64,000 nt of DNA from Verrucomicrobiota bacterium (GCA_013820875.1 JACDHS010000006.1:17865-81864), one strand, 5' to 3'. Numbered from the stretch's first letter, positions 1,418-28,325 are shown. Notes: generated by a model not told the origin, from the letters alone. Made by a program: numbers and translations.

Positions 1418-3454
1418 ATGACACCAAAACTTTTTTCGGATTTAGGGCTTTCACCAGAAATATTGAAAGCGATTGATAAACTCGGTTTCGAACAGGCTTC
1501 CCCCATTCAGGCAGACGCCATCCCGGTCCTGATGTCCGGCAAAGACGTCGTTGGACAATCCATGACCGGCTCCGGCAAGACTGCCGCATTCGCCATCCCG
1601 GCCATTGAAAAAACAGACCCACTCCAGCGCAATGTTCAGATCATGATTCTTTGCCCCACGCGCGAACTCGCCGTGCAGGTATCTGAAGAAGTACACAAAC
1701 TTGCTTTGTTCAAGCGTGGCATCAATGCGCTTCCCATTTACGGCGGCCAATCCTACGAACGCCAGTTCTGGGGTCTCAAGCAAGGCGCGCAGATCGTCAT
1801 CGGCACACCGGGCCGTGTCATGGATCACATGCGCCGCGGAACGTTGCGCCTCGATAATGTGAAGATGGCCATTCTCGACGAAGCCGATGTCATGCTCGAC
1901 ATGGGTTTCCGCGAAGACATCGAATTCATTCTCGCTGCACTACCCAAGGAACGTCAGACCGTTTTCTTCTCGGCCACCATGCCGCGCCCGATCCAGCAAC
2001 TGATCGAGAAATACGCGCGCGACCCGCAAAGCGTCCGGATCGAACAAAAAGCGATGACCGTGCCGACCGTCGAACAAGAGTTCTACGAAGTGAATCGCCC
2101 GTTCAAAGTCGAACTGCTCACCCGCCTCATTGATATTCACGATTACAAACTTGGCATCGTGTTCTGTAACACCAAGCGAATGGTGGACGATCTCGTGGAT
2201 CATTTGAATGCCCAGGGTTACTCCGCCGACCGTTTGCATGGCGACATGACGCAGGCGATGCGTGACCGGGTCATGAACAAGTTCCGCAAATCCGGTTTGG
2301 AATTTCTCGTTGCCACCGATGTCGCCGCTCGCGGCATTGATGTGGATGACGTGCAAGTCGTGTTCAATTACGACCTGCCCTACGATCCCGAAGATTACGT
2401 CCATAGGATCGGTCGGACAGGCCGCGCCGGACGTAGCGGACGCGCCATCTCGTTTGTCTCGGGTCGCGAGTTATTTCAAATCCAGCACATTGAACGCTTC
2501 ACCAAGATGCGGATTCAGCGTGGCAAAATCCCTACGGCCAACGAAGTTGAGGAAGCGCGCGCCAGTGTGTTCGTCGATAAAGTTCGTGAAATCCTGCAGG
2601 GCGGAAAATTCAAGCCGCAGGATCATCTGGTCGGCCGTTTGTTGGAAGAAGGATTTACTTCCACCGACATTGCTTCCGCACTCATTCACCTCTTGCAAGG
2701 CGACGAAGCGCCTCAAGCAGCCCGCTCCGAGGATTACGACCGTCCCGAACGCGCGCCGATGCGTGGGGATGCGCGCCAGGATCGTTTTGCCGACCGTGGT
2801 GGCCGAGGAGAACAACGCGGCTTCGACGATCGTCGTGGAGACCGCGGTGGCCGTGGCGGATTTGATGATCGCCGCGAGCGCGCACCGATGCGCCGCCCGG
2901 AACCCTCCAATTTCCGCGTCGCCGATGTGCGCGAGAAACAGCAACGCGAAGCGTTCGTGCCGAAGCGAGTCATTCCACCCGCTGGCGCACCGAAAACATT
3001 CGTGCCAAAGACAGTTACACCCAAAACGGTTACGCCAAAGCCAATCGCTCCAAAAACAGTTATCCCCAAGGCGCCGGAACCCGTGAAAACGGAGAAACCA
3101 ACCGCCCCTGTATCGGAAGCCGCTCCATCGGAACCGAAGAAGCCGCTCCCCTTTCCAGATCGTCGTCCAGAGACAACTGTTGCACCGAAAAAGGTGGCCA
3201 AATCAACGAAGGGCACTCCCGGTGACCAAACCCGTTTGCACATGAACATCGGCGAAGAGTTGGGATTCCGTCCGGCGGATGTAGTGAGTATCATCATGGG
3301 GGAGACCGGTGTCCCCGCAAAGCATATCGGAACCATCGACATGCGCGAAAAGCATCTATTCGTCAACGTCACCGCCGAGCACGCCAAAGCTATTGTTTCC
3401 AAGCTGAACCGAGCCCAGGTCAAAAACCAGAAATTGAAGGTTAAAGTGGCGTAG
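1418..3454 (+). CDS. deaD: DEAD-box ATP-dependent RNA helicase with C-terminal DbpA-type RNA-binding domain
   Basis: Q-motif region GFEQASPIQ, Walker A GSGKT, DEAD (LDEADVML), SAT, HRIGRTGRAG. The C-terminal segment TRLHMNIGEELGFRPADVV...KVKVA is DbpA-like. The start is trimmed from the track's 1271 to ATG 1418 (MTPKLFSDLGL). Confidence 0.9.
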   Translation: MTPKLFSDLGLSPEILKAIDKLGFEQASPIQADAIPVLMSGKDVVGQSMTGSGKTAAFAIPAIEKTDPLQRNVQIMILCPTRELAVQVSEEVHKLALFKRGINALPIYGGQSYERQFWGLKQGAQIVIGTPGRVMDHMRRGTLRLDNVKMAILDEADVMLDMGFREDIEFILAALPKERQTVFFSATMPRPIQQLIEKYARDPQSVRIEQKAMTVPTVEQEFYEVNRPFKVELLTRLIDIHDYKLGIVFCNTKRMVDDLVDHLNAQGYSADRLHGDMTQAMRDRVMNKFRKSGLEFLVATDVAARGIDVDDVQVVFNYDLPYDPEDYVHRIGRTGRAGRSGRAISFVSGRELFQIQHIERFTKMRIQRGKIPTANEVEEARASVFVDKVREILQGGKFKPQDHLVGRLLEEGFTSTDIASALIHLLQGDEAPQAARSEDYDRPERAPMRGDARQDRFADRGGRGEQRGFDDRRGDRGGRGGFDDRRERAPMRRPEPSNFRVADVREKQQREAFVPKRVIPPAGAPKTFVPKTVTPKTVTPKPIAPKTVIPKAPEPVKTEKPTAPVSEAAPSEPKKPLPFPDRRPETTVAPKKVAKSTKGTPGDQTRLHMNIGEELGFRPADVVSIIMGETGVPAKHIGTIDMREKHLFVNVTAEHAKAIVSKLNRAQVKNQKLKVKVA

Positions 3455-3508
3455 GCGATTGACGATTCTTGATTGACGATTGACGTGTCTCCGGCACGGA
3501 CTCAAACC

Positions 3509-3550
3509 ATGGCGCAGACAACAATCATTGTTTGCGCCATTTTACTTTTG
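3509..3550. terminator. Stem-loop between convergent genes (likely bidirectional intrinsic terminator)
   Basis: atggcgcagacaa (3509-3521) pairs with ttgtttgcgccat (3528-3540), 13 bp with one G-T pair, followed by tttacttttg. Confidence 0.6.
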
Positions 3551-3570
3551 ATCGGACGACTGCTAATCCT

Positions 3571-3927
3571 CTACGCACTCACCAGGACTTTGAACCCGCC
3601 CCAGGCCATCCGCTTGCAATCGAAGGGCATGTCTTTCTCCCCCATCTCTTGCATGCGAGGATCTTGCATCACCTTCGCGTTGACTTTGTCCCGATGCGCT
3701 CGTGATTTGAAAACGATCCATGCAAACACAACGGTCTCGCCCGGTTTAGCCTTTGCGAGTTTAGGAAAGGGAATGCCGAATTTCACATCCATGTCGTCCC
3801 CGACACATTCGCGGTATTCGAGAGCGCCATGTTCGCGCCAGATTTTCCCCGCCTTCTGCGCAATGCGCCGGTAATCCTGAATCTTTTCCGTGGGCACGGA
3901 TAAAACGAATCCATCTACATACTCCAT
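3571..3927 (-). CDS. DUF1428 family protein
   Basis: 118 aa. MEYVDGFVLSVP...WREHGALEYRECVGDD...VVFAWIVFKSRAHRD...PFDCKRMAWGGF matches the DUF1428 pattern as I recall it. Confidence 0.7.
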   Translation of the reverse strand: MEYVDGFVLSVPTEKIQDYRRIAQKAGKIWREHGALEYRECVGDDMDVKFGIPFPKLAKAKPGETVVFAWIVFKSRAHRDKVNAKVMQDPRMQEMGEKDMPFDCKRMAWGGFKVLVSA

Positions 3928-3956
3928 ATCATTTCCTTTGTTTTACGGTTTTCGGT

Positions 3957-5300
3957 TCAAGTGGTTACGTCGCTCAATTGATGTTGTGTGAGATGCCGAT
4001 TCTGTAACTCACAATTGTTCAGCCGGTTCGATAACAACAACTGCTCTGATTTAATCTCCGTCAGTTGAATCGCTTTTTGAAGATGTTGAGCGGCTAACTC
4101 AAAGTTCTTCAAGCGGGTTTCAAATTCAGCCTTCACTGCATAAAATAAATAGTAAGCTTCCAACGACTGCTGATTCTGAATGGCGGCTACAGCCTCCATC
4201 CCGGCTTTCGGCCCGTGGACCTGCGCAACGGCAACGGCCCGGTTCAACGCGATCACCGGCGATGCGTCCAGACTCACTAATTGATCGTACAATGCCAAAA
4301 TCCGCGGCCAATCTGTGGATGCGTAATCCCCCGCTGTGCAGTGGCACCCCGCGATTCCCGCTTGAAGATGATACGCCGTCAGGTCTTCGCCGACTGCGGA
4401 GCGCGCCAGGTGATACATTCCCCGCGCGATCATTCCCTGGTTCCAACTGGAACGATCCTGTTCCTCCAACCGAAGAACGTTTCCCGCAATATCCGTCCGC
4501 GCGGAAAGTCGCGCGGCATTGAATAACATCAGGGCGAGCAACGCATGCGTGCGCGGCTGGTTCCCTTCCGGATGTTCGGCCAGCAATGTTCCCAACCGAA
4601 TTGCTTCAACGCAGAGTTCTTCGCGAATTAAACTCTCCCCGTTCGACGCCTTATAACCTTCGTTGAACAACAGGTAGAGCGTTTGCAGCACGCCATTCAG
4701 GCGATCCGAAAGTTCATTACCACAGGGAATCTCAAACGGAATTTTCAACTCGCGAATTCTCTGCCTGGCGCGCGTCAACCGCTTGGCAACAGCGGCTTCC
4801 GTCGTCAGGAACGCTTTCGCAATTTCCGCCGGACTGAATCCGCAAAGCGTTTTGAGCGCAAGCGCCGTTTGCGATTCAGACGGAATCAACGGATGACAAC
4901 ACGCAAACATCAGTCGCAGGCGGCCATCCTTGATTTCTGTTTCAAACGCAGGTGAATCCTCGACGTTGACCTCATTCGACCATTGCTCAATGAAGGCAAT
5001 GATCTGCGGTTGCTTCTCGTAAAAAACCTTTTCGCGCCGGAGCACATCCAACGCGAGGTTCTTCGCCGTCTGCGTGAGCCATGCGGCTGGATTCCTGGGA
5101 ATCCCGTAGTAAGGCCAGGTCTGCAATGCCCGCCCCAATGCTTCCTGCACCACATCTTCCGACAACTGCAAACGTTCGATCCCAAAGAGACCCGTCAACA
5201 CGGAAACAAGCTTCCCTGCCTCATGTCGAAAGAGGTGATCAGTCAGCCCTGAAATATCGCGGCCCGGATCTGACCCTGGATTATTTGCGTCCGAACTCAC
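3957..5300 (-). CDS. ECF-type RNA polymerase sigma factor with long C-terminal helical/TPR-like extension (ECF42-like)
   Basis: 447 aa. The N-terminal sigma-2/sigma-4 regions read FRHEAGKLVSVLTGLFG...NPAAWLTQTAKNLALDVLRR...GFSPAEIAKAFLTTEAAVAKRLTRARQRI. They are followed by about 250 aa of helical extension. Two DGPF genes lie immediately upstream. Confidence 0.8.
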   Translation of the reverse strand: MSSDANNPGSDPGRDISGLTDHLFRHEAGKLVSVLTGLFGIERLQLSEDVVQEALGRALQTWPYYGIPRNPAAWLTQTAKNLALDVLRREKVFYEKQPQIIAFIEQWSNEVNVEDSPAFETEIKDGRLRLMFACCHPLIPSESQTALALKTLCGFSPAEIAKAFLTTEAAVAKRLTRARQRIRELKIPFEIPCGNELSDRLNGVLQTLYLLFNEGYKASNGESLIREELCVEAIRLGTLLAEHPEGNQPRTHALLALMLFNAARLSARTDIAGNVLRLEEQDRSSWNQGMIARGMYHLARSAVGEDLTAYHLQAGIAGCHCTAGDYASTDWPRILALYDQLVSLDASPVIALNRAVAVAQVHGPKAGMEAVAAIQNQQSLEAYYLFYAVKAEFETRLKNFELAAQHLQKAIQLTEIKSEQLLLSNRLNNCELQNRHLTQHQLSDVTT

Positions 5301-5439: not shown

Positions 5440-5865
5440 TTATGCGGTCACGCCCGCGGTCTCTCCCGAGCGCGTCGAATCTTCCAACGCACGTTCCCTC
5501 ACTCCGCAGATCTCTGCCACCGGCCGAACCTCGACCGCCGCCCCGTATTCGAGCCCGGGACATTGCTTTGCGATTTCGAGCGCTTCGTCCATTCCCGCGA
5601 CATGAAGATAAAAATAGCCGCCAATGGCCTCCTTGGATTCCGCAAAAGGGCCGTCGGCGACAGATTGACCTTTCTTCCCGGAAACAATCTTGCCCTCATT
5701 CATCAGCGGATGGCCGGACTTCGCCTTGCCCTCTTTCGTGAGTCCTTCGAACCAGGCCATCCAGTCGGAAACCACCTTTTGAAGTTGTTCCGGAGAGAGA
5801 CCTTTGTCCCAGTTGGTCCCGCGAAAAAGCAGCATGTAATCAGATTTCGGTGTGGGTGTGTTCAT
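5440..5865 (-). CDS. YciI-related / DGPF domain protein
   Basis: Trimmed to ATG 5865 (MNTPTPKSDYMLLFRG...). It contains DGPFAESKEAIGGYFYL, the DGPF signature. Confidence 0.8.
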   Translation of the reverse strand: MNTPTPKSDYMLLFRGTNWDKGLSPEQLQKVVSDWMAWFEGLTKEGKAKSGHPLMNEGKIVSGKKGQSVADGPFAESKEAIGGYFYLHVAGMDEALEIAKQCPGLEYGAAVEVRPVAEICGVRERALEDSTRSGETAGVTA

Positions 5866-5881
5866 AGTGTCATTTGTGCCA

Positions 5882-6280
5882 TTAAGCCGTTGCCAGTGCC
5901 AATCGTTCTTTTGCCCGTTTGAAGCACGGGCATTCATCCAGCACCTGCCGCACTTCGATGTTAACCCCGTACTCAAGGGTCGGACTGGATTTTGCGATGT
6001 TTGTCGCCTCTTCGATACTGTCCGCCGTGATCAGCAGATAACCACCGATCGCTTCCTTCGATTCCGCGAATGGTCCGTCGGAAACTTTCTGCCCGGAAAG
6101 GGTTCGCCCCTCGCGAGCGAGGGGTTGGCCTCCTTTTACTCGTCCTTGTTCTTGCAGCCCATCAAACCACGCCATGACTTTGTCCAGGCGTTGCTGCAGT
6201 TCTTCGGGGGAGATTCCCTGGTCCCAATCCGGTCCACTGAAAAGCAGTATGTATTCGGATGATGTCTTTGAATTGTTCAT
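5882..6280 (-). CDS. YciI-related / DGPF domain protein (paralog)
   Basis: 132 aa with SDGPFAESKEAIGGYLLI. It is clearly homologous to the adjacent gene. Confidence 0.85.
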   Translation of the reverse strand: MNNSKTSSEYILLFSGPDWDQGISPEELQQRLDKVMAWFDGLQEQGRVKGGQPLAREGRTLSGQKVSDGPFAESKEAIGGYLLITADSIEEATNIAKSSPTLEYGVNIEVRQVLDECPCFKRAKERLALATA

Positions 6281-21455: not shown

Positions 21456-21682
21456 TGGAGGTCTTCCAAATTATTTTGGAGCGCAAGAATTTACATTTTT
21501 CGGCCTCCAAACTTTTTTGGAGCGCAAGAATTTACATTTTTCGGCCTCCAAACTTTTTTGGAGCACAAGAATTTACATTTTTCGGTCTCCAAACTTTTTT
21601 GGAGCACAAGAATTTACAATTTTTGGTCTCCAAACTTTTTTGGAACGCAAAGAATTACATTTTTCGGCACCCATTTTGATTC
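21456..21682. repeat. Tandem array, 41-bp period, about 5.5 units, with a hairpin at each unit junction
   Basis: Units start at 21478, 21519, 21560, 21601 and 21642 (ggagcgcaagaatttacatttttcggcctccaaactttttt), with a partial unit at 21456. CTCCAAA-cttt-TTTGGAG spans each junction (for example 21505-21522). Confidence 0.9.
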
Positions 21683-21783
21683 ACTGACTTCTATTCCACC
21701 GCAAACGTCGAGGAACCTGCGCCACCTTCATAAACCGCTGTCTTGAAAGCCGTTACAAACCGGGAACAGGACCCAAACCGGCA

Positions 21784-21968
21784 TTTTTTCCCGCGGAAAA
21801 AGTCTGAGTCAGCTTCTGATTCCGTTTTTTTCCGGCGGAAAAGTTGTGATCAGAGCTGGAGCGTGTTTTTTCCCGCGGAAAAATCGTCCATCAGCTTCTG
21901 ATCACAACTTTTCCGCCGGAAAAAATGCCGATCTGGTCGTGAATCGGACTTTTTTTTCCGGGAAAAAT
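21784..21968. repeat. Cluster of five TTTTCC(N3-5)GGAAAA palindromes, including a 101-bp near-perfect palindrome
   Basis: Palindrome centres lie at about 21793, 21835, 21875, 21916 and 21960. Arms 21825-21858 and 21892-21925 are reverse complements with a single 1-nt indel. Confidence 0.9.
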
Positions 21969-22237
21969 GAACCCAATAAGCAGAGAGGAAAGTCGTCCGC
22001 GGAACACAATAGAGTGCGAAGCGACACCCGTTTTAGTTCCGTTCAAAAATCCATCCCAACACTCCGATGCGCGGGCGTGCGCTGGCGAACTTGTGGGGAG
22101 TGACAAATGTCCCATCTCGATCAGGAGTCGGGAGCAAACAACGAGCTTTTTTGCTTCTCCGAATTTAGATGACGTCAGCCCTGATATTGATTGCCTGTGC
22201 GCTTGCCGATATAGGCATGTTGGATACACTGCTTGAG

Positions 22238-22244
22238 GTTAGCC
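22238..22244 (+). other. Core-site-like GTTAGCC at the array start (attI or degraded attC remnant?)
   Basis: GTTAGCC lies 3 nt upstream of ATG 22248. I found no convincing inverted partner upstream. Confidence 0.3.
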
Positions 22245-22247
22245 AGT

Positions 22248-22736
22248 ATGACCCCGACTCGAGCACAGTATTTCTTCGCAAGAGGCATACCGCTTCGCGT
22301 GTTATCTTTGCTTTTTTTCATTGGTGTCCCTCTCTGTTTTGCGTATGTCGTGGCAGGTGTTCTCACGCACGTTTATGAGCCTCTCTCCAGCGTTTGGAAT
22401 CTACTAAAGCTGGGGTTTTATGTGATCGTTGCACTGCTATTGAGCTTTCTCGTGACTCTCGTTATGGGGGGGTTCCTGGTGGGCATCTTTTGGCCGCTGT
22501 TTCGGCCTCTATATGAGGCACGCTGCAGGAAGAACGGCGCGCCGTTTCATGTTGGTGATCGCGTTCGCATACTCGTGGGCCGCAACAAAGATCGGGTTAC
22601 CAGAGTTTACAGTGATTGGAGGGATGATTGTGTGCGGGTGGAACTGGGTGAGGAGGAGAAAGAAGAGTTCAAGGACATTTTCTCGATCATCCAACTCGTT
22701 AGAGAGGATGCCGAATCGGGTAGCCGGAATGATTGA
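22248..22736 (+). CDS. Cassette ORF: small membrane protein (3 TM) with soluble C-terminal domain
   Basis: Trimmed from the track's TTG 22233 to ATG 22248 (MTPTRAQYFF...). The hydrophobic segments are clear. The last 8-10 codons (..DAESGSRND*) are encoded by repeat element B. Confidence 0.6.
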   Translation: MTPTRAQYFFARGIPLRVLSLLFFIGVPLCFAYVVAGVLTHVYEPLSSVWNLLKLGFYVIVALLLSFLVTLVMGGFLVGIFWPLFRPLYEARCRKNGAPFHVGDRVRILVGRNKDRVTRVYSDWRDDCVRVELGEEEKEEFKDIFSIIQLVREDAESGSRND

Positions 22737-22809
22737 CCTCCCCCCACACCACCTGACATGCGGGTCCGCGCCTCAGTTTCGAGCGAACCTGGAATAACCA
22801 TTCCGGACT
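22714..22809 (+). repeat. Element B, copy 1 (3-copy structured repeat)
   Basis: The core aatcgggtagccggaaKgattgacc..cccccacaccacctgaYatgcgggtccgc is shared with 27284 and 28244. A local stem pairs agccggaatg (22722-31) with cattccgg(a)ct (22799-809). Confidence 0.85.
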
Positions 22810-22910
22810 CTCTTGGATCACGCTGTTGGCTTGACTTTCCATCGTAAAAATTCAAGTTCAGCAAATGGTTTTTGCCCCAGACGCCCACCCAAGGCAATCG
22901 GATAGTCCCG

Positions 22911-22974
22911 CCCGAAAACCCGAGCCAATATCAAGTTATCAGGGCAAATCTGCCTGTGAATCATATGGTTCGGT
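22911..22974 (+). repeat. Weak attC-like element ending in GTTCGGT
   Basis: GTTCGGT (22968-22974) lies 6 nt before ATG 22981. A possible inverse core is cccgaaaac at 22911-22919. The internal pairing is poor. Confidence 0.3.
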
Positions 22975-22980
22975 GGAAGC

Positions 22981-23661
22981 ATGATGAACACGCAACGCTT
23001 GATTCAAATAGGGGAGTCATTAGCTCGGCCTTGCATTTACCTGAACCATGCCCCCTCCAAAGGCGCCGCAGTTGCCGCTTATTGGGCGGGAAGTCGCAAA
23101 GATATTCCAGACGAGATTCCTCAGCCCAGTGCGTACTGTTCCCGACGGCATATCCTCACGATTGAGCCGCATCTTTTCGCCGAACTTGGTTTAGATGTTC
23201 GTCGCCCCTTCTGTGTATATGAGGAGGAAGACCAAGAAGGGGCGATTCACCCGACCATATATTTACCAGAGTCGCCTGCGTTTTCAGAGATTCAGTGCTC
23301 CGGTGTTCCCCTGTTTCCGAGAAAAGACCGGTCTTTTCCTCCATTTCAGGCAGCCTGTTTGTATGGAGGCGAAGAGGTAGCCGCTTGGTTAAATTCGCTC
23401 GGCAAGAAGCCCTGGGAATATACACACGTCGCGAATGAGGTCAGGAGCGGGTATGATGCCGAATACCGAAGGCGATCGCCACTTTACACTAAAGGAGCAG
23501 ATGTGATGCTCGGCGGTTGGCATACGATTTGGCATTGGGACTCGTTTTACATGCCCGCAGAGATGCGATTGCTCGCTTGGACCTTTCGTGATGCCGAGCC
23601 GTGGTACGAGGTTTGGCTTGATCAGATAGGGAATCTAAGTGTGAAAACACGGACCACTTAG
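22981..23661 (+). CDS. Cassette ORF: hypothetical protein (226 aa)
   Basis: Long ORF with ordinary composition. The C-terminal MLGGWHTIWHWDSFYM...LLAWTFRDAEPWYEVWL faintly resembles YwqG/DUF1963-type proteins, but I cannot confirm this. Confidence 0.55.
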   Translation: MMNTQRLIQIGESLARPCIYLNHAPSKGAAVAAYWAGSRKDIPDEIPQPSAYCSRRHILTIEPHLFAELGLDVRRPFCVYEEEDQEGAIHPTIYLPESPAFSEIQCSGVPLFPRKDRSFPPFQAACLYGGEEVAAWLNSLGKKPWEYTHVANEVRSGYDAEYRRRSPLYTKGADVMLGGWHTIWHWDSFYMPAEMRLLAWTFRDAEPWYEVWLDQIGNLSVKTRTT

Positions 23662-23719
23662 CAGACCTGAGCCGGGCGGAAAATGTTACTCTGCCGCAAG
23701 TTGCCCAACCAAAGCGTCG

Positions 23720-23792
23720 AGCCAACGGCCGGTTGCGCTTTTTGTTTTGTCCTTGAGTCACTGGCCAGCGGTGGCTCACGCTGGCGTTAGCC
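23720..23792 (+). repeat. attC-like element (AGCCAAC ... GTTAGCC)
   Basis: Inverse core AGCCAAC at 23720-26 and core GTTAGCC at 23786-92, 13 nt before ATG 23806. The internal stems are imperfect (for example ccagcg/cgctgg). Confidence 0.35.
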
Positions 23793-23805
23793 TGCATTCG
23801 CGCGC

Positions 23806-24372
23806 ATGAACTCTTCACTCCATCGGTTAATCACGATTGAGCCGCCACCAATTCACTTGGTTGCGCCCGGATCGCTGGCGGATTGGTCGCGAGTTGAGAC
23901 AGAAGTTGGCGCTCGGTTGCCACAAGACTTTAAGGATTACATTTCGGTTTATGGTGCGGGGCAATGGGGCGATTTCTTTGGAGTGATTAACCCCTTCTAC
24001 AAGTGGAAGCATCCGCAAGCGCAGGAGAGTTGGCGCGCTTGGATGGATCTGCGTTTGGGAGGATTGGAAGAGATGGGACGGAAGTATCCGCAGTACACCG
24101 CCCCATTCCGTCCGCACCCTGCCTCGGATGGCCTGCTTGCATTCGGGTATAATGACAACGGAGGCACTTTGTGCTGGCAGGCATCGGGAGAGCCAGACTC
24201 CTGGCGCATTGTGTGCCTCGATGGAAAATTGTCGGAGGAGTATGATGCGTTCGACATGACGCTGACTGCTTTTCTTGCGGCATTGCTGAGCGAGGAGATT
24301 TCTCTACGGACATTTGCGCCGGATTTCTTTCCAGTTCGGCGGCCGGCGTTTCGACCTTACACGACAGAATGA
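23806..24372 (+). CDS. Cassette ORF: SMI1/KNR4 (SUKH-1) family protein, immunity-protein-like
   Basis: WSRVETEVGARLPQDFKDYISVYGAG...LLAFGYNDNGGTLCW matches the SMI1_KNR4 pattern (W..iE..lG..LP.dyk.fl..yGg). Confidence 0.7.
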   Translation: MNSSLHRLITIEPPPIHLVAPGSLADWSRVETEVGARLPQDFKDYISVYGAGQWGDFFGVINPFYKWKHPQAQESWRAWMDLRLGGLEEMGRKYPQYTAPFRPHPASDGLLAFGYNDNGGTLCWQASGEPDSWRIVCLDGKLSEEYDAFDMTLTAFLAALLSEEISLRTFAPDFFPVRRPAFRPYTTE

Positions 24373-24379
24373 CCATGCA

Positions 24380-24505
24380 GGCTATCAAGGTCGGTGCAGA
24401 CAACAGCGCCCCGCGCTTTGGCCTTGTTGCTTTTCTGATTTTTCTAGCCACTATTGCAGTCGGCGCGGCGCTCACGGGCGCTGTGTCTGACCTGATTCAT
24501 TAGCC
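24380..24505 (+). repeat. attC-like imperfect palindrome (GGCTATC ... ATTAGCC), 126 bp
   Basis: The left arm ggctatcaaggtcggtgcagacaacagcgcc..gcgc matches the reverse complement of the right arm ggctaatgaatcaggtcagacacagcgcc..gcgc, with several bulges. It starts 8 nt after the stop and ends 15 nt before ATG 24521. Confidence 0.6.
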
Positions 24506-24520
24506 ACAATCAAACAATCC

Positions 24521-25084
24521 ATGGGCCTACATATTCAAACACTCGATGCGATTCCCGCAGATGCGGGACGCAAATACTTCATCTATCTTCTCGACTACGG
24601 CTGGGAGGAACCTCTCGTGAATACCTTAATGCAGAATTTCACGAATATGGCCCGTATGGCCTCTGACTCCGATGCAGTAGTCATCGCCGGCATCTCGCCC
24701 GTCCATTTTGCTAATGATGTGTTCTCGTGGCACGGCATCAACGGTGAGGATGGAGAAGCTATCTTACCAGCGATAATGATTACATCCTTGCACCCCACGT
24801 ATTTCATCGAAAATCAAAACGGAGCAAGAGGCGAGATAAGCGACAAATTGATCATCATTCCGCTGAAGAAGGCGTGCAAGACGACCGATGACGTAATCAA
24901 GCTTATCCAATCTATATTTAAGGACATCAAGGGAGGCGGCGCTCCGATGTCCTTTTCAGTTGCGAAAGAAATGAAGAAAGAAGAGCACGGAAGATTCGCC
25001 GATTCTCTACTTCTAGAACCGAATTTTGCGGGAGTTGGAGTCAGGCTTCCTCAGTTACTGCAATGGCTCGTAAAGAAGAAATAG
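24521..25084 (+). CDS. Cassette ORF: hypothetical protein (187 aa)
   Basis: Clean ORF bounded by attC-like elements. I recognise no motif. Confidence 0.55.
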   Translation: MGLHIQTLDAIPADAGRKYFIYLLDYGWEEPLVNTLMQNFTNMARMASDSDAVVIAGISPVHFANDVFSWHGINGEDGEAILPAIMITSLHPTYFIENQNGARGEISDKLIIIPLKKACKTTDDVIKLIQSIFKDIKGGGAPMSFSVAKEMKKEEHGRFADSLLLEPNFAGVGVRLPQLLQWLVKKK

Positions 25085-25206
25085 GCTAACATGCGCTGCA
25101 GTGAACTGCTCCGGGCGTCACGGCAACTGCTTCCGCCGCCGCCTTTCCGCCCACCATGCAGCTACCGCGCCACCTTCCGCAGTCGCTGAGCTTGGGGTCG
25201 TTAGCC
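25084..25206 (+). repeat. attC-like element (GGCTAAC ... GTTAGCC), 123 bp
   Basis: Inverse core GGCTAAC at 25084-90 overlaps the TAG stop. The exact complement GTTAGCC lies at 25200-06. Inner arms are partly complementary (gctgcagtgaactgc against gcagtcgctgagc). Confidence 0.5.
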
Positions 25207-25227
25207 CGCAATCGCACGTCAACTAAT

Positions 25228-25533
25228 ATGAGACCATTGGGACATCCTCCAGACGCAGAATCTGACGAAGACTCCATAGAGATGATTCGCGGATGGATAG
25301 TTGATGGTGAGCTTCAGATTTCTTTGGCCGCATGGGTTTGGGTCGACGAACCCAACCAATGGGGACGCTTACTTGCGGAGTCCGCGTGTCATCTCGCTGA
25401 TGCCATTTCAGAAGAAACCGGGAAGAATCGAGATGAGGTGTTTCGCGCCATTACCGAGAGTTTGATTCACCATTTGCGTCATCCTCCAACTGACTTGGAG
25501 GGTGATCACGTCAGTCCCGTCGACCCAGTATGA
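25228..25533 (+). CDS. Cassette ORF: hypothetical protein (101 aa)
   Basis: Trimmed to ATG 25228 (MRPLGHPPDAESDEDSIEMIRGWIVDGELQISLAAW...), which places the start after the core site at 25200. Confidence 0.5.
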   Translation: MRPLGHPPDAESDEDSIEMIRGWIVDGELQISLAAWVWVDEPNQWGRLLAESACHLADAISEETGKNRDEVFRAITESLIHHLRHPPTDLEGDHVSPVDPV

Positions 25534-25540
25534 AGACTCT

Positions 25541-25633
25541 GGCTAACCAACCGCATGCACTAAACCCCGCGATAGCGCTGTGGTTTCAAATTGAGTATCA
25601 CTGGCGCGGGGTCAGTGATGCGGGACGTTCGGC
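25541..25633 (+). repeat. attC-like imperfect palindrome (GGCTAAC ... GTTCGGC), 93 bp
   Basis: ggctaaccaaccgcatgcactaaaccccgcg pairs with cgcggggtcagtgatgcgggacgttcggc. The paired blocks are cgcgggg, agtg, atgcgg and gtt, with extrahelical bases between them. It ends 6 nt before ATG 25640. Confidence 0.65.
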
Positions 25634-25639
25634 AAAAGT

Positions 25640-26122
25640 ATGACACGCGCACTGGCATTGATTCTGATGTTGTTTCTCACGGCGTGTTCTGACGTGGGTG
25701 ATACCAGGCTGGATGGTACGTGGGCTTCTGATCGGGAAGCCACTGTTGCTTATGGCAGGTCTCTGAGCCCCGACATGGACTGGGGCAAGTATTCTCAAAT
25801 TTTCGGACACCTTCGTGTGACATATGACGCCAATACAATGACCACCGATTTTCAGGGGCATGTTGAGCGCCGTCCGCTTCGACTTGTGCGCAGGGATAAG
25901 GATTCAGTGACAGCCAAGGTGTGGGATGATCTCGATGAGAAGGAGCGTCTGGTCACGATTCACTTTGTGGATGCGGATACTTATTGGATATACATTCGGG
26001 ACACGGATCATCGAGAGTATTTTAAAAGATTGAAGGAGGCCAAACCAAGCGATGCACCTAATGACGGCCCCGCCATGTCAGTTGAGGAGTCGGATGGCTC
26101 TGGAGGGGGCCGTCATCGGTGA
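25640..26122 (+). CDS. Cassette ORF: small lipoprotein (lipobox LTAC)
   Basis: MTRALALILMLFLTAC|SD signal/lipobox. The last roughly 28 codons are encoded by attC-like element A1. Confidence 0.6.
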   Translation: MTRALALILMLFLTACSDVGDTRLDGTWASDREATVAYGRSLSPDMDWGKYSQIFGHLRVTYDANTMTTDFQGHVERRPLRLVRRDKDSVTAKVWDDLDEKERLVTIHFVDADTYWIYIRDTDHREYFKRLKEAKPSDAPNDGPAMSVEESDGSGGGRHR

Positions 26123-26137
26123 TCTTGCACGTTAGGC
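26039..26137 (+). repeat. attC-like element A1 (GCCAAAC ... GTTAGGC), homologous to A2
   Basis: Stems are atgacggcccc/ggggccgtcat, cacc/ggtg and caag/cttg. The canonical core GTTAGGC at 26131-37 lies 13 nt before ATG 26151. About 75% of the sequence is alignable to 27576-27669. Confidence 0.6.
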
Positions 26138-26150
26138 CGCTTCTCACGTC

Positions 26151-26420
26151 ATGAACAGCATCTGGATTTTTAACGGCCCGAAGTCGCAGTTTCCTTCTGG
26201 CGTGTTCACGCAGCGTGAAGCTGCCGAGAGTTGGATTCGCCAGCATGGTTTGAGCGGCACTCTCACAGCGTATCCCGTGGACATCGGCACGTATGACTGG
26301 GCAGTCAGCGCAGGACATTTCACTCCGAAGCGAGACGACCAGCGAAGCGCAGAGTTCATTCAGCGCTTCAGTTCTGCCACGCAGGAGCATTATCATTATG
26401 AGCACGGCAACGAGGCCTAA
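26151..26420 (+). CDS. Cassette ORF: hypothetical small protein (89 aa)
   Basis: MNSIWIFNGPKSQFPSGVFTQREAAESWIRQHGLSGTLTAYPVDIGTYDWAV... It starts right after the core site. I cannot assign a family with confidence. Confidence 0.5.
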   Translation: MNSIWIFNGPKSQFPSGVFTQREAAESWIRQHGLSGTLTAYPVDIGTYDWAVSAGHFTPKRDDQRSAEFIQRFSSATQEHYHYEHGNEA

Positions 26421-27252
26421 CAAATCACCCCACATGAATATTACGGGAAGACAGAAGGTTGTTGCGACTGCCGCGATAGCGGCGGCCATTCTCGCGCTTT
26501 GGGCACTCTGGCCTTCAGGACCGTCGTATCAGGGAAGATCGATGAAGAGCTGGTTCTATGACCGCGGCGAGAATGATACGGAGGCTTTTCGAGCAATGGG
26601 CAGCGCGGGTGTGCCGTTTCTGATCGAACGGCTGGAGGATGCTCCGTCGGAACGCGTGACGCTCCTGGTAAAGTTGTCCATTGTGAGTAAGGAGTCCTAC
26701 CGTCAAAATAAGGTGATGTGGCAACACAGGGCGGCATATTTGCTGGGAGAGATGGGGACGGCGGCGCAGAAGGCGGAGCCGAAACTGGCGAAGGCGGCAA
26801 CGAGTGAAAACTGGAGCTTACGCGGAGGTGCGACGGTTGCCCTGATGAAGATCAGGCAGGAATCGCCTGACTCCTTGATCGAACAACTGCGCGACACGAG
26901 CGACCCGCAGGCCTGGTATCAAACCGGAATGATGGTTGGGCAGTTCGGAGCGCAGTCGGAACCGGCAGTGCCGATCCTGCTGGAAGCCCTTCAGCACACC
27001 AACAATGTCATCCAAGCGCACGCGCTCATCGCGTTGGGAATGATTGCCAGGCAGCCCGACAAGTGCATCCCTGCCATCGTTCCATTCCTGACCTCGCCGA
27101 ATGTCAGTGACCGGCAGAAGGCGATCGGGGCACTACTCGCTTACAGAACCAATGCGTTGCCCGCGACAGATGCGATTCAAAAGGCATTGAGCGATTCCGA
27201 CCCATGGGTGCGGAGCGATGCCGCCGCCGCCATGAAGATTTTGCAACAATAG
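26398..27252 (+). CDS. Cassette ORF: HEAT-repeat protein with N-terminal membrane anchor
   Basis: I prefer ATG 26398 (AGGAG 10 nt upstream), which overlaps the previous ORF by 23 nt; the alternative is ATG 26434. TM segment VVATAAIAAAILALWALW. Repeated helical pairs (..AAYLLGEMG.., ..ALIALGMIA.., ..AIGALLAY..) are HEAT/PBS-lyase-like. Confidence 0.6.
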   Translation: MSTATRPNKSPHMNITGRQKVVATAAIAAAILALWALWPSGPSYQGRSMKSWFYDRGENDTEAFRAMGSAGVPFLIERLEDAPSERVTLLVKLSIVSKESYRQNKVMWQHRAAYLLGEMGTAAQKAEPKLAKAATSENWSLRGGATVALMKIRQESPDSLIEQLRDTSDPQAWYQTGMMVGQFGAQSEPAVPILLEALQHTNNVIQAHALIALGMIARQPDKCIPAIVPFLTSPNVSDRQKAIGALLAYRTNALPATDAIQKALSDSDPWVRSDAAAAMKILQQ

Positions 27253-27283
27253 AAACCCTGGAAAACAGGGATGAAATTGTCGG

Positions 27284-27362
27284 ATCGGGTAGCCGGAAGG
27301 ATTGACCTCCCGGCCCCCACACCACCTGACATGCGGGTCCGCTTCAGGCGGTTCCGGTCAGA
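27284..27362 (+). repeat. Element B, copy 2
   Basis: atcgggtagccggaaggattgacctcccggcccccacaccacctgacatgcgggtccgcttcaggcggttccggtcaga. It begins 32 nt after the HEAT gene stop. Confidence 0.85.
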
Positions 27363-27575
27363 TTATCGTCTGACAGTTTCCCTTTCGGGCTCTGCCCTTC
27401 GTAATGCAGTTCGATCCATCGTGCCTTCAAATCCGGCACGGCTTGTTCCCTCGCGATTCCGCAGTTGTTTCTGTTTGCTTTTGAGATCATCCTGCTTTTC
27501 ATCCGAGAAATCAGATGATCATTTTCTCACATAGAAGACTTCCATCCCATCAATTCACGCCCATGTCAGGCGCAC

Positions 27576-27669
27576 ACCAAGCGATGTACCGAATGACGGC
27601 CACGCCCCGCCAGTTGAGAATTCGGATGTTTCGGGGAGGGGGCCTCATCGATGATCTTGATGGTTCGGC
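27576..27669 (+). repeat. attC-like element A2 (... GTTCGGC), homologous to A1
   Basis: It aligns with 26044-26137. CCGAA (27589-93) and TTCGG (27664-68) replace A1's CCTAA and TTAGG. It ends 18 nt before ATG 27688. Confidence 0.55.
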
Positions 27670-27687
27670 AGGAGCACAACGCTTTCC

Positions 27688-28266
27688 ATGACCGCCCTAA
27701 TTCATTCGAAGCGACTGGACCTGGTTCCCATGACTCCGGCATTCCTCCGTGCTTCACTGGAAGGCAACATCCAGAGAGCGGAACAGGAACTGCAACTGTC
27801 TTTACCTTCGGGATGGCCTGGGGAAAACGCGGATATGCTATCCCTCCGGCTCAAACAACTCGAAGACGACCCGACCCTTCAGCCGTGGTTGGTCCGTGCA
27901 ATGGTCCTTCGAGGGGCTGCCATCATGGTCGGGCACATTGGCTTCCACACTGCACCGGATGCGGATTACCTTCGGCCACTCTGTCCCGGGGGCGTCGAGT
28001 TTGGCTTCACCGTATTTCCTTCCTTCCAGCGCCAGGGATTCACCCGCGAAGCTGCCATTGCCCTAATGCATTGGGCGAGTCGGACTCATGACGTGAAACG
28101 CTTCGTGCTGTCAATTCGACCGGACAATGTTCCATCCCAACGTCTCGCCGCCCAACTGGGATTTCTCCGTGTCGGGTCTCATGTTGACGAGATTGATGGC
28201 TTTGAGGAAATTTTGGAACGCAGAATCTTGAGTGACGATGCCCAATCGGGTAGCCGGAAGGATTGA
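27688..28266 (+). CDS. Cassette ORF: GNAT family N-acetyltransferase (RimJ/RimL-like)
   Basis: FGFTVFPSFQRQGFTREAAIALMHWA (acetyl-CoA motif A, Q/RxxGxG/A-like) and NVPSQRLAAQLGF. The last codons (..DAQSGSRKD*) are encoded by element B. Confidence 0.8.
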   Translation: MTALIHSKRLDLVPMTPAFLRASLEGNIQRAEQELQLSLPSGWPGENADMLSLRLKQLEDDPTLQPWLVRAMVLRGAAIMVGHIGFHTAPDADYLRPLCPGGVEFGFTVFPSFQRQGFTREAAIALMHWASRTHDVKRFVLSIRPDNVPSQRLAAQLGFLRVGSHVDEIDGFEEILERRILSDDAQSGSRKD

Positions 28267-28325
28267 CCGTTCCGGCCCCCACACCACCTGATATGCGGGT
28301 CCGCATCAGGCGGTTCCGGTCAGAC
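28244..28325 (+). repeat. Element B, copy 3
   Basis: aatcgggtagccggaaggattgaccgttccggcccccacaccacctgatatgcgggtccgcatcaggcggttccggtcaga. It overlaps the GNAT stop codon. Confidence 0.85.

Follow-up and report, generated by a model that had tools for sequence, protein, structure and literature searches.

Positions 22238 to 28324 of a 64,000-nucleotide stretch of Verrucomicrobiota DNA (GCA_013820875.1; the whole stretch is called the window here, and positions are counted from its first letter) carry a row of small open reading frames (ORFs), which raises the question of whether they form an integron cassette array without an integrase, that is, a cluster of attC sites lacking an integrase (CALIN), as had been proposed in a sequence-only reading. 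Our analysis makes it very likely that the region from ~22238 to 28324 is such an array, located on the chromosome of an uncultured Verrucomicrobiota genome and without an adjacent integrase. This reading is supported because attC covariance models match the junctions between the ORFs, because fragments of an attC-targeting intron are present in them, and because the same intron lineage adjoins integron integrases in other contigs.

An attC site is bounded by two complementary ends, R'' (RYYYAAC) and R' (GTTRRRY), and has a length of ~57–141 nt. Its inner palindrome, L''/L', is imperfect: the R''-L'' arm carries extrahelical bases, and the central loop is variable. All 13 of the 7-mers quoted in the sequence-only reading were found exactly where it had placed them, and the cores match GTTRRRY or depart from it by one base as described, the strict motif occurring only in GTTAGGC at 26131. 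Of the 10 called array starts, five have the local core, GTT[AC]G[GC][CT], in the preceding 30 nt, against none of 30 called genes elsewhere in the window (five of these 30 were mapped ~41 nt off, the NCBI record having one repeat unit fewer). The looser pattern of GTT plus RRRY with one mismatch precedes 5/30 genes outside the array and is therefore weak by itself, so that the comparison of 7-mer frequencies favors the proposal for the local core and not for the looser one.

The bottom strands, folded as single-stranded DNA, are more stable than shuffled sequences at 24380–24505 (z = -2.4), 25541–25633 (z = -2.2), and 26039–26137 (z = -3.1). At 25084–25206 the cores pair perfectly, yet the z value of the fold is -0.6, and the fold energies at 23702–23792 and 27571–27669 were not distinct from those of the shuffles. 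A generic scan for AAC...GTT palindromes was unspecific, as it returned 13–14 matches per strand in 64 kb with only two of the array sites among them. Alignment of the window's own sites with MAFFT and RNAalifold misaligned them and gave no useful structure, and searching the window against Rfam, in both gathering and E-value modes, returned nothing relevant, the intron fragments described below being missed as well. The 7-mers, the folds, and the palindrome scan thus left the attC call open, and the decisive support came from covariance models specific to the attC family.

Two such models, R1 and R2, were trained without any sequence of the window, only on sites from other metagenome contigs. 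For R1, target sites were rebuilt by joining both flanks of full-length introns, and the eight that align well were used; 89.9% of the cells in this alignment are paired and 17 pairs show compensatory changes, compared with 31–41% paired for slid partners. When run on the entire window, on both strands and without filters, R1 matched 25545–25633 (71.9 bits, E = 2.3e-16), 26039–26137 (41.2 bits, E = 2.5e-8), 23703–23792 (28.4 bits, E = 5.8e-5), and 27572–27669 (E = 9.5e-4), with partial matches at the remaining two array sites (24380 and 25084). R2, built from 44 matches in intron-bearing contigs, gave six full-length matches in the 64 kb (E = 1.4e-18 to 7.2e-7; Table 1), the next-best match in the window having an E value of 0.86. 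All six lie on the plus strand and between cassette ORFs, in the canonical orientation that had been proposed.

The specificity of the models is indicated by the control searches. In 1.19 Mb of control loci, R1 gave three matches, all of them in one contig (L087) that had been retrieved for its homologue of the cassette 4 protein and proved to be an array of the same attC family; no match to the attC family model was found in the 1.17 Mb of unrelated, mostly Verrucomicrobial control DNA. In addition, R2 detected class 1 attC sites on the plasmid pVIM_Pse-KSS14, namely those of aadA1, fosE, and aac(6')-Ib' (E = 4.6e-9 to 4.2e-6), and the known bulged bases of the aadA1 attC align with the bulge columns of the model. 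Arrays in which four to five such sites follow one another at the spacing of cassettes occur in further metagenome contigs.

The six sites are 89–126 nt long, begin at or within ~42 nt past a stop codon or overlap the end of the ORF, and each ends 3–22 nt ahead of the next start. Both AAC and GTT are intact in four of the six, and 4–7 of the seven core positions are complementary, depending on the R'' assigned to one of them (site D). The family consensus consists of R'' GCCNAAC, a long imperfect stem, a variable loop, a one-sided spacer of 4 nt, and a GTTAGGC-like R', with two single-base bulges six pairs apart on the R''-side (5') arm. The proposed imperfect palindromes with bulges are borne out by the consensus, and by the folding test at three sites and not at the other three. 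The proposed inverse cores stand with two amendments: for the unit with its core at 23786 the inverse core is GCCCAAC and not AGCCAAC at 23720, and GGCTAAC at 25541 overlaps the AACCAAC chosen by the model. The attC of cassette 3 carries mutations in both of the conserved triplets and is therefore probably no longer recombinable.

A second repeat family, which was absent from the sequence-only reading, provides evidence of a different kind. A repeat search found three plus-strand copies in the window, at ~22715, 27284, and 28245, and nowhere else in it. An exact 22-nt core of this repeat occurs in at least 120 JGI metagenome contigs, where the sequence after it contains, on the opposite strand, the end of a long ORF that closes in NLTGTA and stop. 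The protein encoded by this ORF contains RVT_1 and GIIM domains only, and the full-length intron DNA matched group-II-D1D4-3, group-II-D1D4-1, and Intron_gpII in Rfam. Because of this adjoining ORF and the Rfam matches, the repeat is identified as the 3' end of a group II intron whose orientation is antisense to that of the cassettes. Group II introns of the attC-targeting kind have the boundaries GUGYG...AY and encode a reverse transcriptase/maturase devoid of an endonuclease domain, and the full-length copies in the other contigs, of 1879–1914 nt, begin with GTGCG and end with CGAT.

The copies in the window are 84.7–93% identical to the ends of the full-length introns, and all three are dead. 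Two are 5'-truncated, presumably as the remnants expected of incomplete reverse transcription from the 3' end; for the first of them, a right end near 22890 was considered and was not backed by BLAST. The third, a relic of 292 nt with an internal deletion, retains both ends, GTGCG and CGAT, together with 52 codons of the reverse transcriptase ORF, up to its closing NLTGTA and stop. Internally deleted derivatives of 210–902 nt recur in five other contigs (L122, L129, L148, L162, and L157). Among those with both ends mapped (L122, L129, L148, L162, and the window copy), both ends are retained and the breakpoints differ. The 292-nt relic was also considered as a mobile mini-intron, an interpretation that was rejected, as no two of the five short derivatives in other contigs share their breakpoints, which makes them independent deletions. 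In two further contigs (L099 and L167), the 5' end of one intron copy lies within 0–3 nt of the 3' end of another, which indicates that one attC received two introns in tandem. In L087, a gene with weak RVT_1/GIIM matches (3392–4546) is oriented in the cassette sense, unlike the antisense introns of the type considered next.

The insertion sites of this intron in other contigs (108 left and 30 right flanks) have the consensus GCCNA|AC. The target is the integron inverse core RYYYAAC, split between its two A's. Introns of the IIC-attC type (group IIC introns that target attC) occupy R'' on the bottom strand of attC, in the direction opposite to that of cassette transcription, and occur in CALINs as well (PMC7923331). 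The insertion within the inverse core and the antisense orientation are the signature of such introns. The closest homologues of the intron protein in 72,556 plasmids, with 52% identity, belong to the ltrA introns of pVIM_Pse-KSS14, which follow the fosE and aadA1 cassettes of a class 1 integron in antisense orientation. In the window, the intron fragments lie in the attC sites of cassettes 1, 7, and 8, which explains two junctions to which the sequence-only reading had assigned no inverse core. In particular, the unit with its core at 27663, for which none was given there, has an attC whose inverse core was split off by the inserted element.

No integrase was found to accompany these sites. 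A phmmer search with three tyrosine recombinases, including a full integron integrase, against 684 six-frame ORFs detected no tyrosine recombinase in the 64-kb window (best E = 0.078), in agreement with the sequence-only reading, and no integrase is present in the ~6.5 kb of the contig past the right end of the window (to record position 70713), which contain the nuo operon and other housekeeping genes. The region therefore has six attC matches clustered within 4 kb and no integron integrase nearby, as in a CALIN; of the components of a complete integron, neither intI with its IntI-specific domain (in the window and the ~6.5 kb) nor an attI-like site upstream of 22238 was recognized. At the left edge, no attC or attI was recognized upstream of the core at 22238 (no R2 match at E <= 5). 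There is a loose similarity between the sequence at 22200–22244, left of and including this core (..ACACTGCTTGAG GTTAGCC), and the attC consensus in its right arm (..CGCTGAGC.... GTTAGGC), so that a truncated attC, and not an attI, may form the left boundary of the array.

Integron integrases do adjoin this intron in other contigs. L163 encodes a full integron integrase (713–1900; TIGR02249, 278.9 bits against a cut-off of 265), and L091 a C-terminal integron integrase fragment (5502–6059; 190 bits over 121 residues). The fragment in L091 is oriented in the cassette sense and the integrase in L163 diverges from the cassettes, and both integron layouts may therefore occur with this family of introns and attC sites. 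A tyrosine recombinase gene below the integron-integrase cut-off lies inside the array of L143 (3066–4193, minus strand), opposite in orientation to the cassettes and ending directly beside an attC match at 4197–4286.

Taken together, the sites in the window carry the sequence and structure of attC, serve as targets of an attC-homing intron, and belong to a family that co-occurs with integron integrases, and the CALIN interpretation of the sequence-only reading is thereby upheld. Several observations weigh against it. Neither an attI nor a promoter was identified upstream of the array, a promoter scan of the plus strand giving none, and the junction at 22770–22974 is recognized by no covariance model. 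Only three sites fold clearly better than shuffled sequence, and the attC call itself depends on models specific to this attC family, the link of which to an integrase consists of two short contigs and the resemblance to canonical sites. Finally, no relative with the same flanking genes was present among the loci compared.

By analogy with established integron biology, the bottom strand of each attC would fold to a hairpin in which the bulged bases mark the strand to be used, the integron integrase would cut R' between G and TT and join it to another attC or attI, and whole cassettes would be excised as circles and re-inserted. The intron would have entered the bottom strand by reverse splicing, in antisense orientation relative to the cassettes and between the T's of the GTT that complements R''. 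As no integrase is encoded nearby, any movement of cassettes would need an integrase made elsewhere in the genome. The array also shows decay: one attC has lost both triplets, intron fragments interrupt the attC sites of cassettes 1, 7, and 8, and the remainder of the last attC is missing, so that the array ends at an intron scar. In view of the decayed attC sites and the dead intron copies, the array is most likely either an integron satellite or a relic that is largely frozen.

The alternative that fares best is an active array with cassettes that still move, on which an integron integrase encoded at another locus of the same genome acts in trans. At least four attC sites (23703, 25084, 25545, and 26039) have intact AAC/GTT cores and stems, CALINs with distant integrases are known (PMC4889954), and, the sequence being a metagenome contig, the genome beyond it is unseen. 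However, four of the eight sites are damaged, one by mutated triplets and three by introns, all of the intron copies are dead, and the cassette content is identical in the two assemblies that carry the locus. We regard this alternative as possible but not probable. A further proposal, which we consider doubtful, is that the intron, by splitting R'', disables excision and locks chosen cassettes into the chromosome, with a trans-acting integrase keeping the other sites active; the locus would then belong to a large, uncharacterized soil and freshwater system comprising attC sites of a family of their own, with a one-sided spacer and bottom-strand C/T bulges, together with a lineage of attC-homing introns that is dedicated to them and very conserved.

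It is very unlikely that the hairpins are instead transcription terminators, or palindromes resembling repetitive extragenic palindromic elements, of an operon of small genes, to whose terminator-like stem-loops the intron homed in the absence of any integron. Class C introns do use terminator hairpins, an ability that IIC-attC introns retain (PMC7923331), and such an origin would suit both the frequency of generic AAC...GTT palindromes in the window and the three of six sites that fold no better than shuffles. However, none of the six sites was scored as a plus-strand terminator and none has a T-run, and the sites keep the AAC/GTT cores, intact in four of six, and two bulges at fixed positions. 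Moreover, the attC family model recognizes true class 1 attC sites and nothing in the 1.17 Mb of control DNA, the same intron has an integron integrase as its neighbor in two contigs, and the genes of the array are functionally unrelated. Least credible is an island of immunity genes (SUKH and others) like those downstream of polymorphic toxin genes, built by ordinary recombination with the motifs as leftovers of duplication: one ORF is indeed a SMI1/KNR4 (SUKH-1) protein, small same-strand ORFs without an assigned function look like such islands, and two of the attC sites are 78% identical, but there is no adjacent toxin gene, the ORFs are not paralogues, the sites are structured, covarying, and common to >40 sites in other contigs with different genes, the cassette 4 gene is found individually in another array (L087), and SUKH genes are also common integron cassettes, so that their presence is not exclusive to this explanation.

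In the CALIN that we favor, 10 plus-strand genes are called between 22248 and 28266 (gene caller of the public record), the number given in the sequence-only reading; one of them, a 44-amino-acid (aa) ORF at 24369–24503 inside an attC, is probably spurious. With boundaries set at G|TT of each R', the genes fall into eight cassettes, as against about eight units proposed, seven of which contain one real ORF and one of which contains two (Table 1); every cassette is closed by an attC of the one family.

Table 1. Features of the array and its flanks, with R2 scores of the attC sites
Feature	Position	Strand	Description
Upstream flank			Sorbosone dehydrogenase-like gene and prepilin-type N-terminal protein
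Left-edge core GTTAGCC	22238..22244	+	3 nt before the first cassette ORF
Cassette 1	22239-22968	+	
Cassette 1 ORF	22248..22736	+	162 aa, no family
attC of cassette 1, left part of R'', GCCGA	22710..22714	+	Severed by intron fragment; GCCNA flank as at 108 intron insertion sites elsewhere
Group II intron fragment, last 59 nt (5'-truncated)	22715..22769	-	84.7-88% identical to 3' ends of six full-length introns
attC of cassette 1, degenerate remainder	22770..22974	+	Ends in core GTTCGGT 22968-22974
Cassette 2	22969-23786	+	
Cassette 2 ORF	22981..23661	+	226 aa, no family
attC of cassette 2	23703..23792	+	R'' GCCCAAC 23703-23709, R' GTTAGCC 23786; 39.3 bits, E 2.2e-9
Cassette 3	23787-24499	+	
Cassette 3 ORF	23806..24372	+	SMI1/KNR4 (SUKH-1), Pfam PF09346, E 4.6e-8
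attC of cassette 3	24380..24505	+	AAC changed to ATC and GTT to ATT; 40.4 bits, E 1e-9
Cassette 4	24500-25200	+	
Cassette 4 ORF	24521..25084	+	187 aa, no family
attC of cassette 4	25084..25206	+	Cores GGCTAAC/GTTAGCC perfectly complementary; long central part; 31.2 bits, E 7.2e-7
Cassette 5	25201-25627	+	
Cassette 5 ORF	25228..25533	+	DUF5076, Pfam PF16826, E 1.5e-21
attC of cassette 5	25545..25633	+	R'' AACCAAC 25545-25551 (choice of the model), R' GTTCGGC 25627; 69.0 bits, E 1.4e-18
Cassette 6	25628-26131	+	
Cassette 6 ORF	25640..26122	+	160 aa; N-terminus resembles lipoprotein signal
attC of cassette 6	26039..26137	+	GCCAAAC ... GTTAGGC; 50.5 bits, E 7.6e-13
Cassette 7	26132-27663	+	Two ORFs and the 292-nt intron relic
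Cassette 7 ORFs	26151..27252	+	DUF7710 26151-26420 (PF24819, E 1.2e-39); HEAT-repeat protein to 27252 (PF13646, E 2.1e-19)
Group II intron relic, internally deleted, 292 nt	27284..27575	-	Keeps nt 1 to ~128 and ~1747 to 1912; in R'' of cassette 7 attC
attC of cassette 7, portion right of intron insertion	27572..27669	+	R' GTTCGGC 27663; R'' split by intron; 38.8 bits, E 3.1e-9
Cassette 8	27664 to ~28244	+	
Cassette 8 ORF	27688..28266	+	GNAT acetyltransferase, Pfam PF13302, E 3.7e-16
attC of cassette 8, left part of R'', GCCCA	28240..28244	+	Remainder of attC missing
Group II intron fragment, last 80 nt (5'-truncated)	28245..28324	-	90-92.5% identical to full-length 3' ends; marks right end of array
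Downstream flank			PQQ-repeat protein, M14 peptidase, purK/purE, S10 ribosomal operon

Four of the cassette ORFs belong to no Pfam family. The 5'-truncated intron fragments overlap the last codons of two unrelated ORFs, supplying the final six codons and the stop of the cassette 1 ORF (SGSRND and stop) and of the cassette 8 ORF (SGSRKD and stop), and the final ~28 codons of the cassette 6 ORF read through the attC of that cassette. Among defense-system profiles, the single match was a weak one to cassette 3 (PDC-M40A, E = 2e-4), which was judged not meaningful. The cassette 4 protein represents an unannotated family with 216 homologues at E <= 0.001. The 120 homologues listed are 45–73% identical and include proteins of Pectobacterium, Alteromonas, Yersinia, Pseudohongiella, and Chloroflexi, and one that is 68% identical is encoded in the L087 array. 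These homologues lie mostly outside recognizable arrays, L087 being the only array, and are often followed by a DUF6615 gene. In the contigs carrying P0126, including L087 (268–1466) and L088, the DUF6615 gene lies 3 nt downstream of the family member; this partner gene is absent beside cassette 4 of the window.

Gene calls and Pfam matches show that the array is flanked by housekeeping genes on the chromosome, and the closest homologues of one flanking protein are found in genomes of Limisphaerales and other Verrucomicrobiota. The locus is also present in the NCBI metagenome contig JAITZQ011654497.1 (GCA_020064125.1, 72,143 bp; 220-base offset to the window), which differs from the window by a few mismatches and by one additional 41-bp repeat unit in the window; in public databases, proteins of this contig are assigned to 'Verrucomicrobia bacterium'. 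None of 80 loci retrieved via the flanking PQQ-repeat protein is syntenic with the window, and the neighborhoods of the closest M14 peptidase homologues (75% and 69% identity) differ from it.

The 41-bp unit belongs to a tandem repeat at 21465–21668 (5.0 copies, 92% matches; units containing TCCAAA...TTTGGA), which was absent from every other locus fetched. With one unit more in the window than in the NCBI record, the number of copies differs among assemblies or among members of the population. Directly 3' of this repeat and ~270 nt before the first cassette lies a large imperfect palindrome (21773–21969; arms of 73 nt, 77% complementary), built of TTTTCC(C/G)GCGGAAAAA-like motifs at a spacing of ~41–43 nt, for which Rfam gave microRNA matches only, at chance level.

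Compared with CALINs as defined by IntegronFinder (Cury et al., 2016, PMC4889954; Neron et al., 2022, PMC9024848), the locus likewise has at least two attC sites in one orientation, cassette-sized spacing of ORFs, no integrase within the required distance, and a chromosomal location, and its six recognizable and two damaged attC sites compare with a reported average of ~6. It differs in the local one-sided spacer of 4 nt next to R', in its cores (GTTAGCC/GTTCGGC rather than strict GTTRRRY), and in the use of a family-specific model for detection. With the IIC-attC introns (pVIM_Pse-KSS14 ltrA; PMC7923331), the intron shares a protein with RVT_1 and GIIM domains only, a length of ~1.9 kb, GUGCG...AU ends, an antisense position, relative to the cassettes, in R'' on the attC bottom strand, occurrence in CALINs, and the frequency of truncated copies. 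In contrast, its protein is only 52% identical to those encoded by the plasmid introns, nothing but dead fragments (59, 80, and 292 nt) is present in the window, and the 5' exon ends in ..GGT here and in TTGT in the published introns. The sedentary chromosomal integrons of Vibrio, Xanthomonas, and others are similar in being chromosomal, in having cassettes mostly of unknown function, and in the likeness of attC sites within an array, represented here by two sites (27572–27669 and 26039–26137) that are 78% identical in the repeat search (repeat D3); they differ in that this locus has no integrase or attI, only eight cassettes, and otherwise diverse attC sites.

CALINs, integrons in Verrucomicrobia, and IIC-attC introns in CALINs have all been published already; the locus is a new example with added detail, and no concept is altered by it. 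It provides a well-documented CALIN from the Verrucomicrobiota, a phylum in which integrons have been noted but hardly described. The intron fragments explain both the junctions that lack a visible inverse core and the common C-terminal tail on unrelated cassette proteins, and they can be used as an independent marker of a real attC where a palindrome is doubtful. Beyond this locus, one attC family and one lineage of attC-homing introns are widespread in environmental metagenomes.

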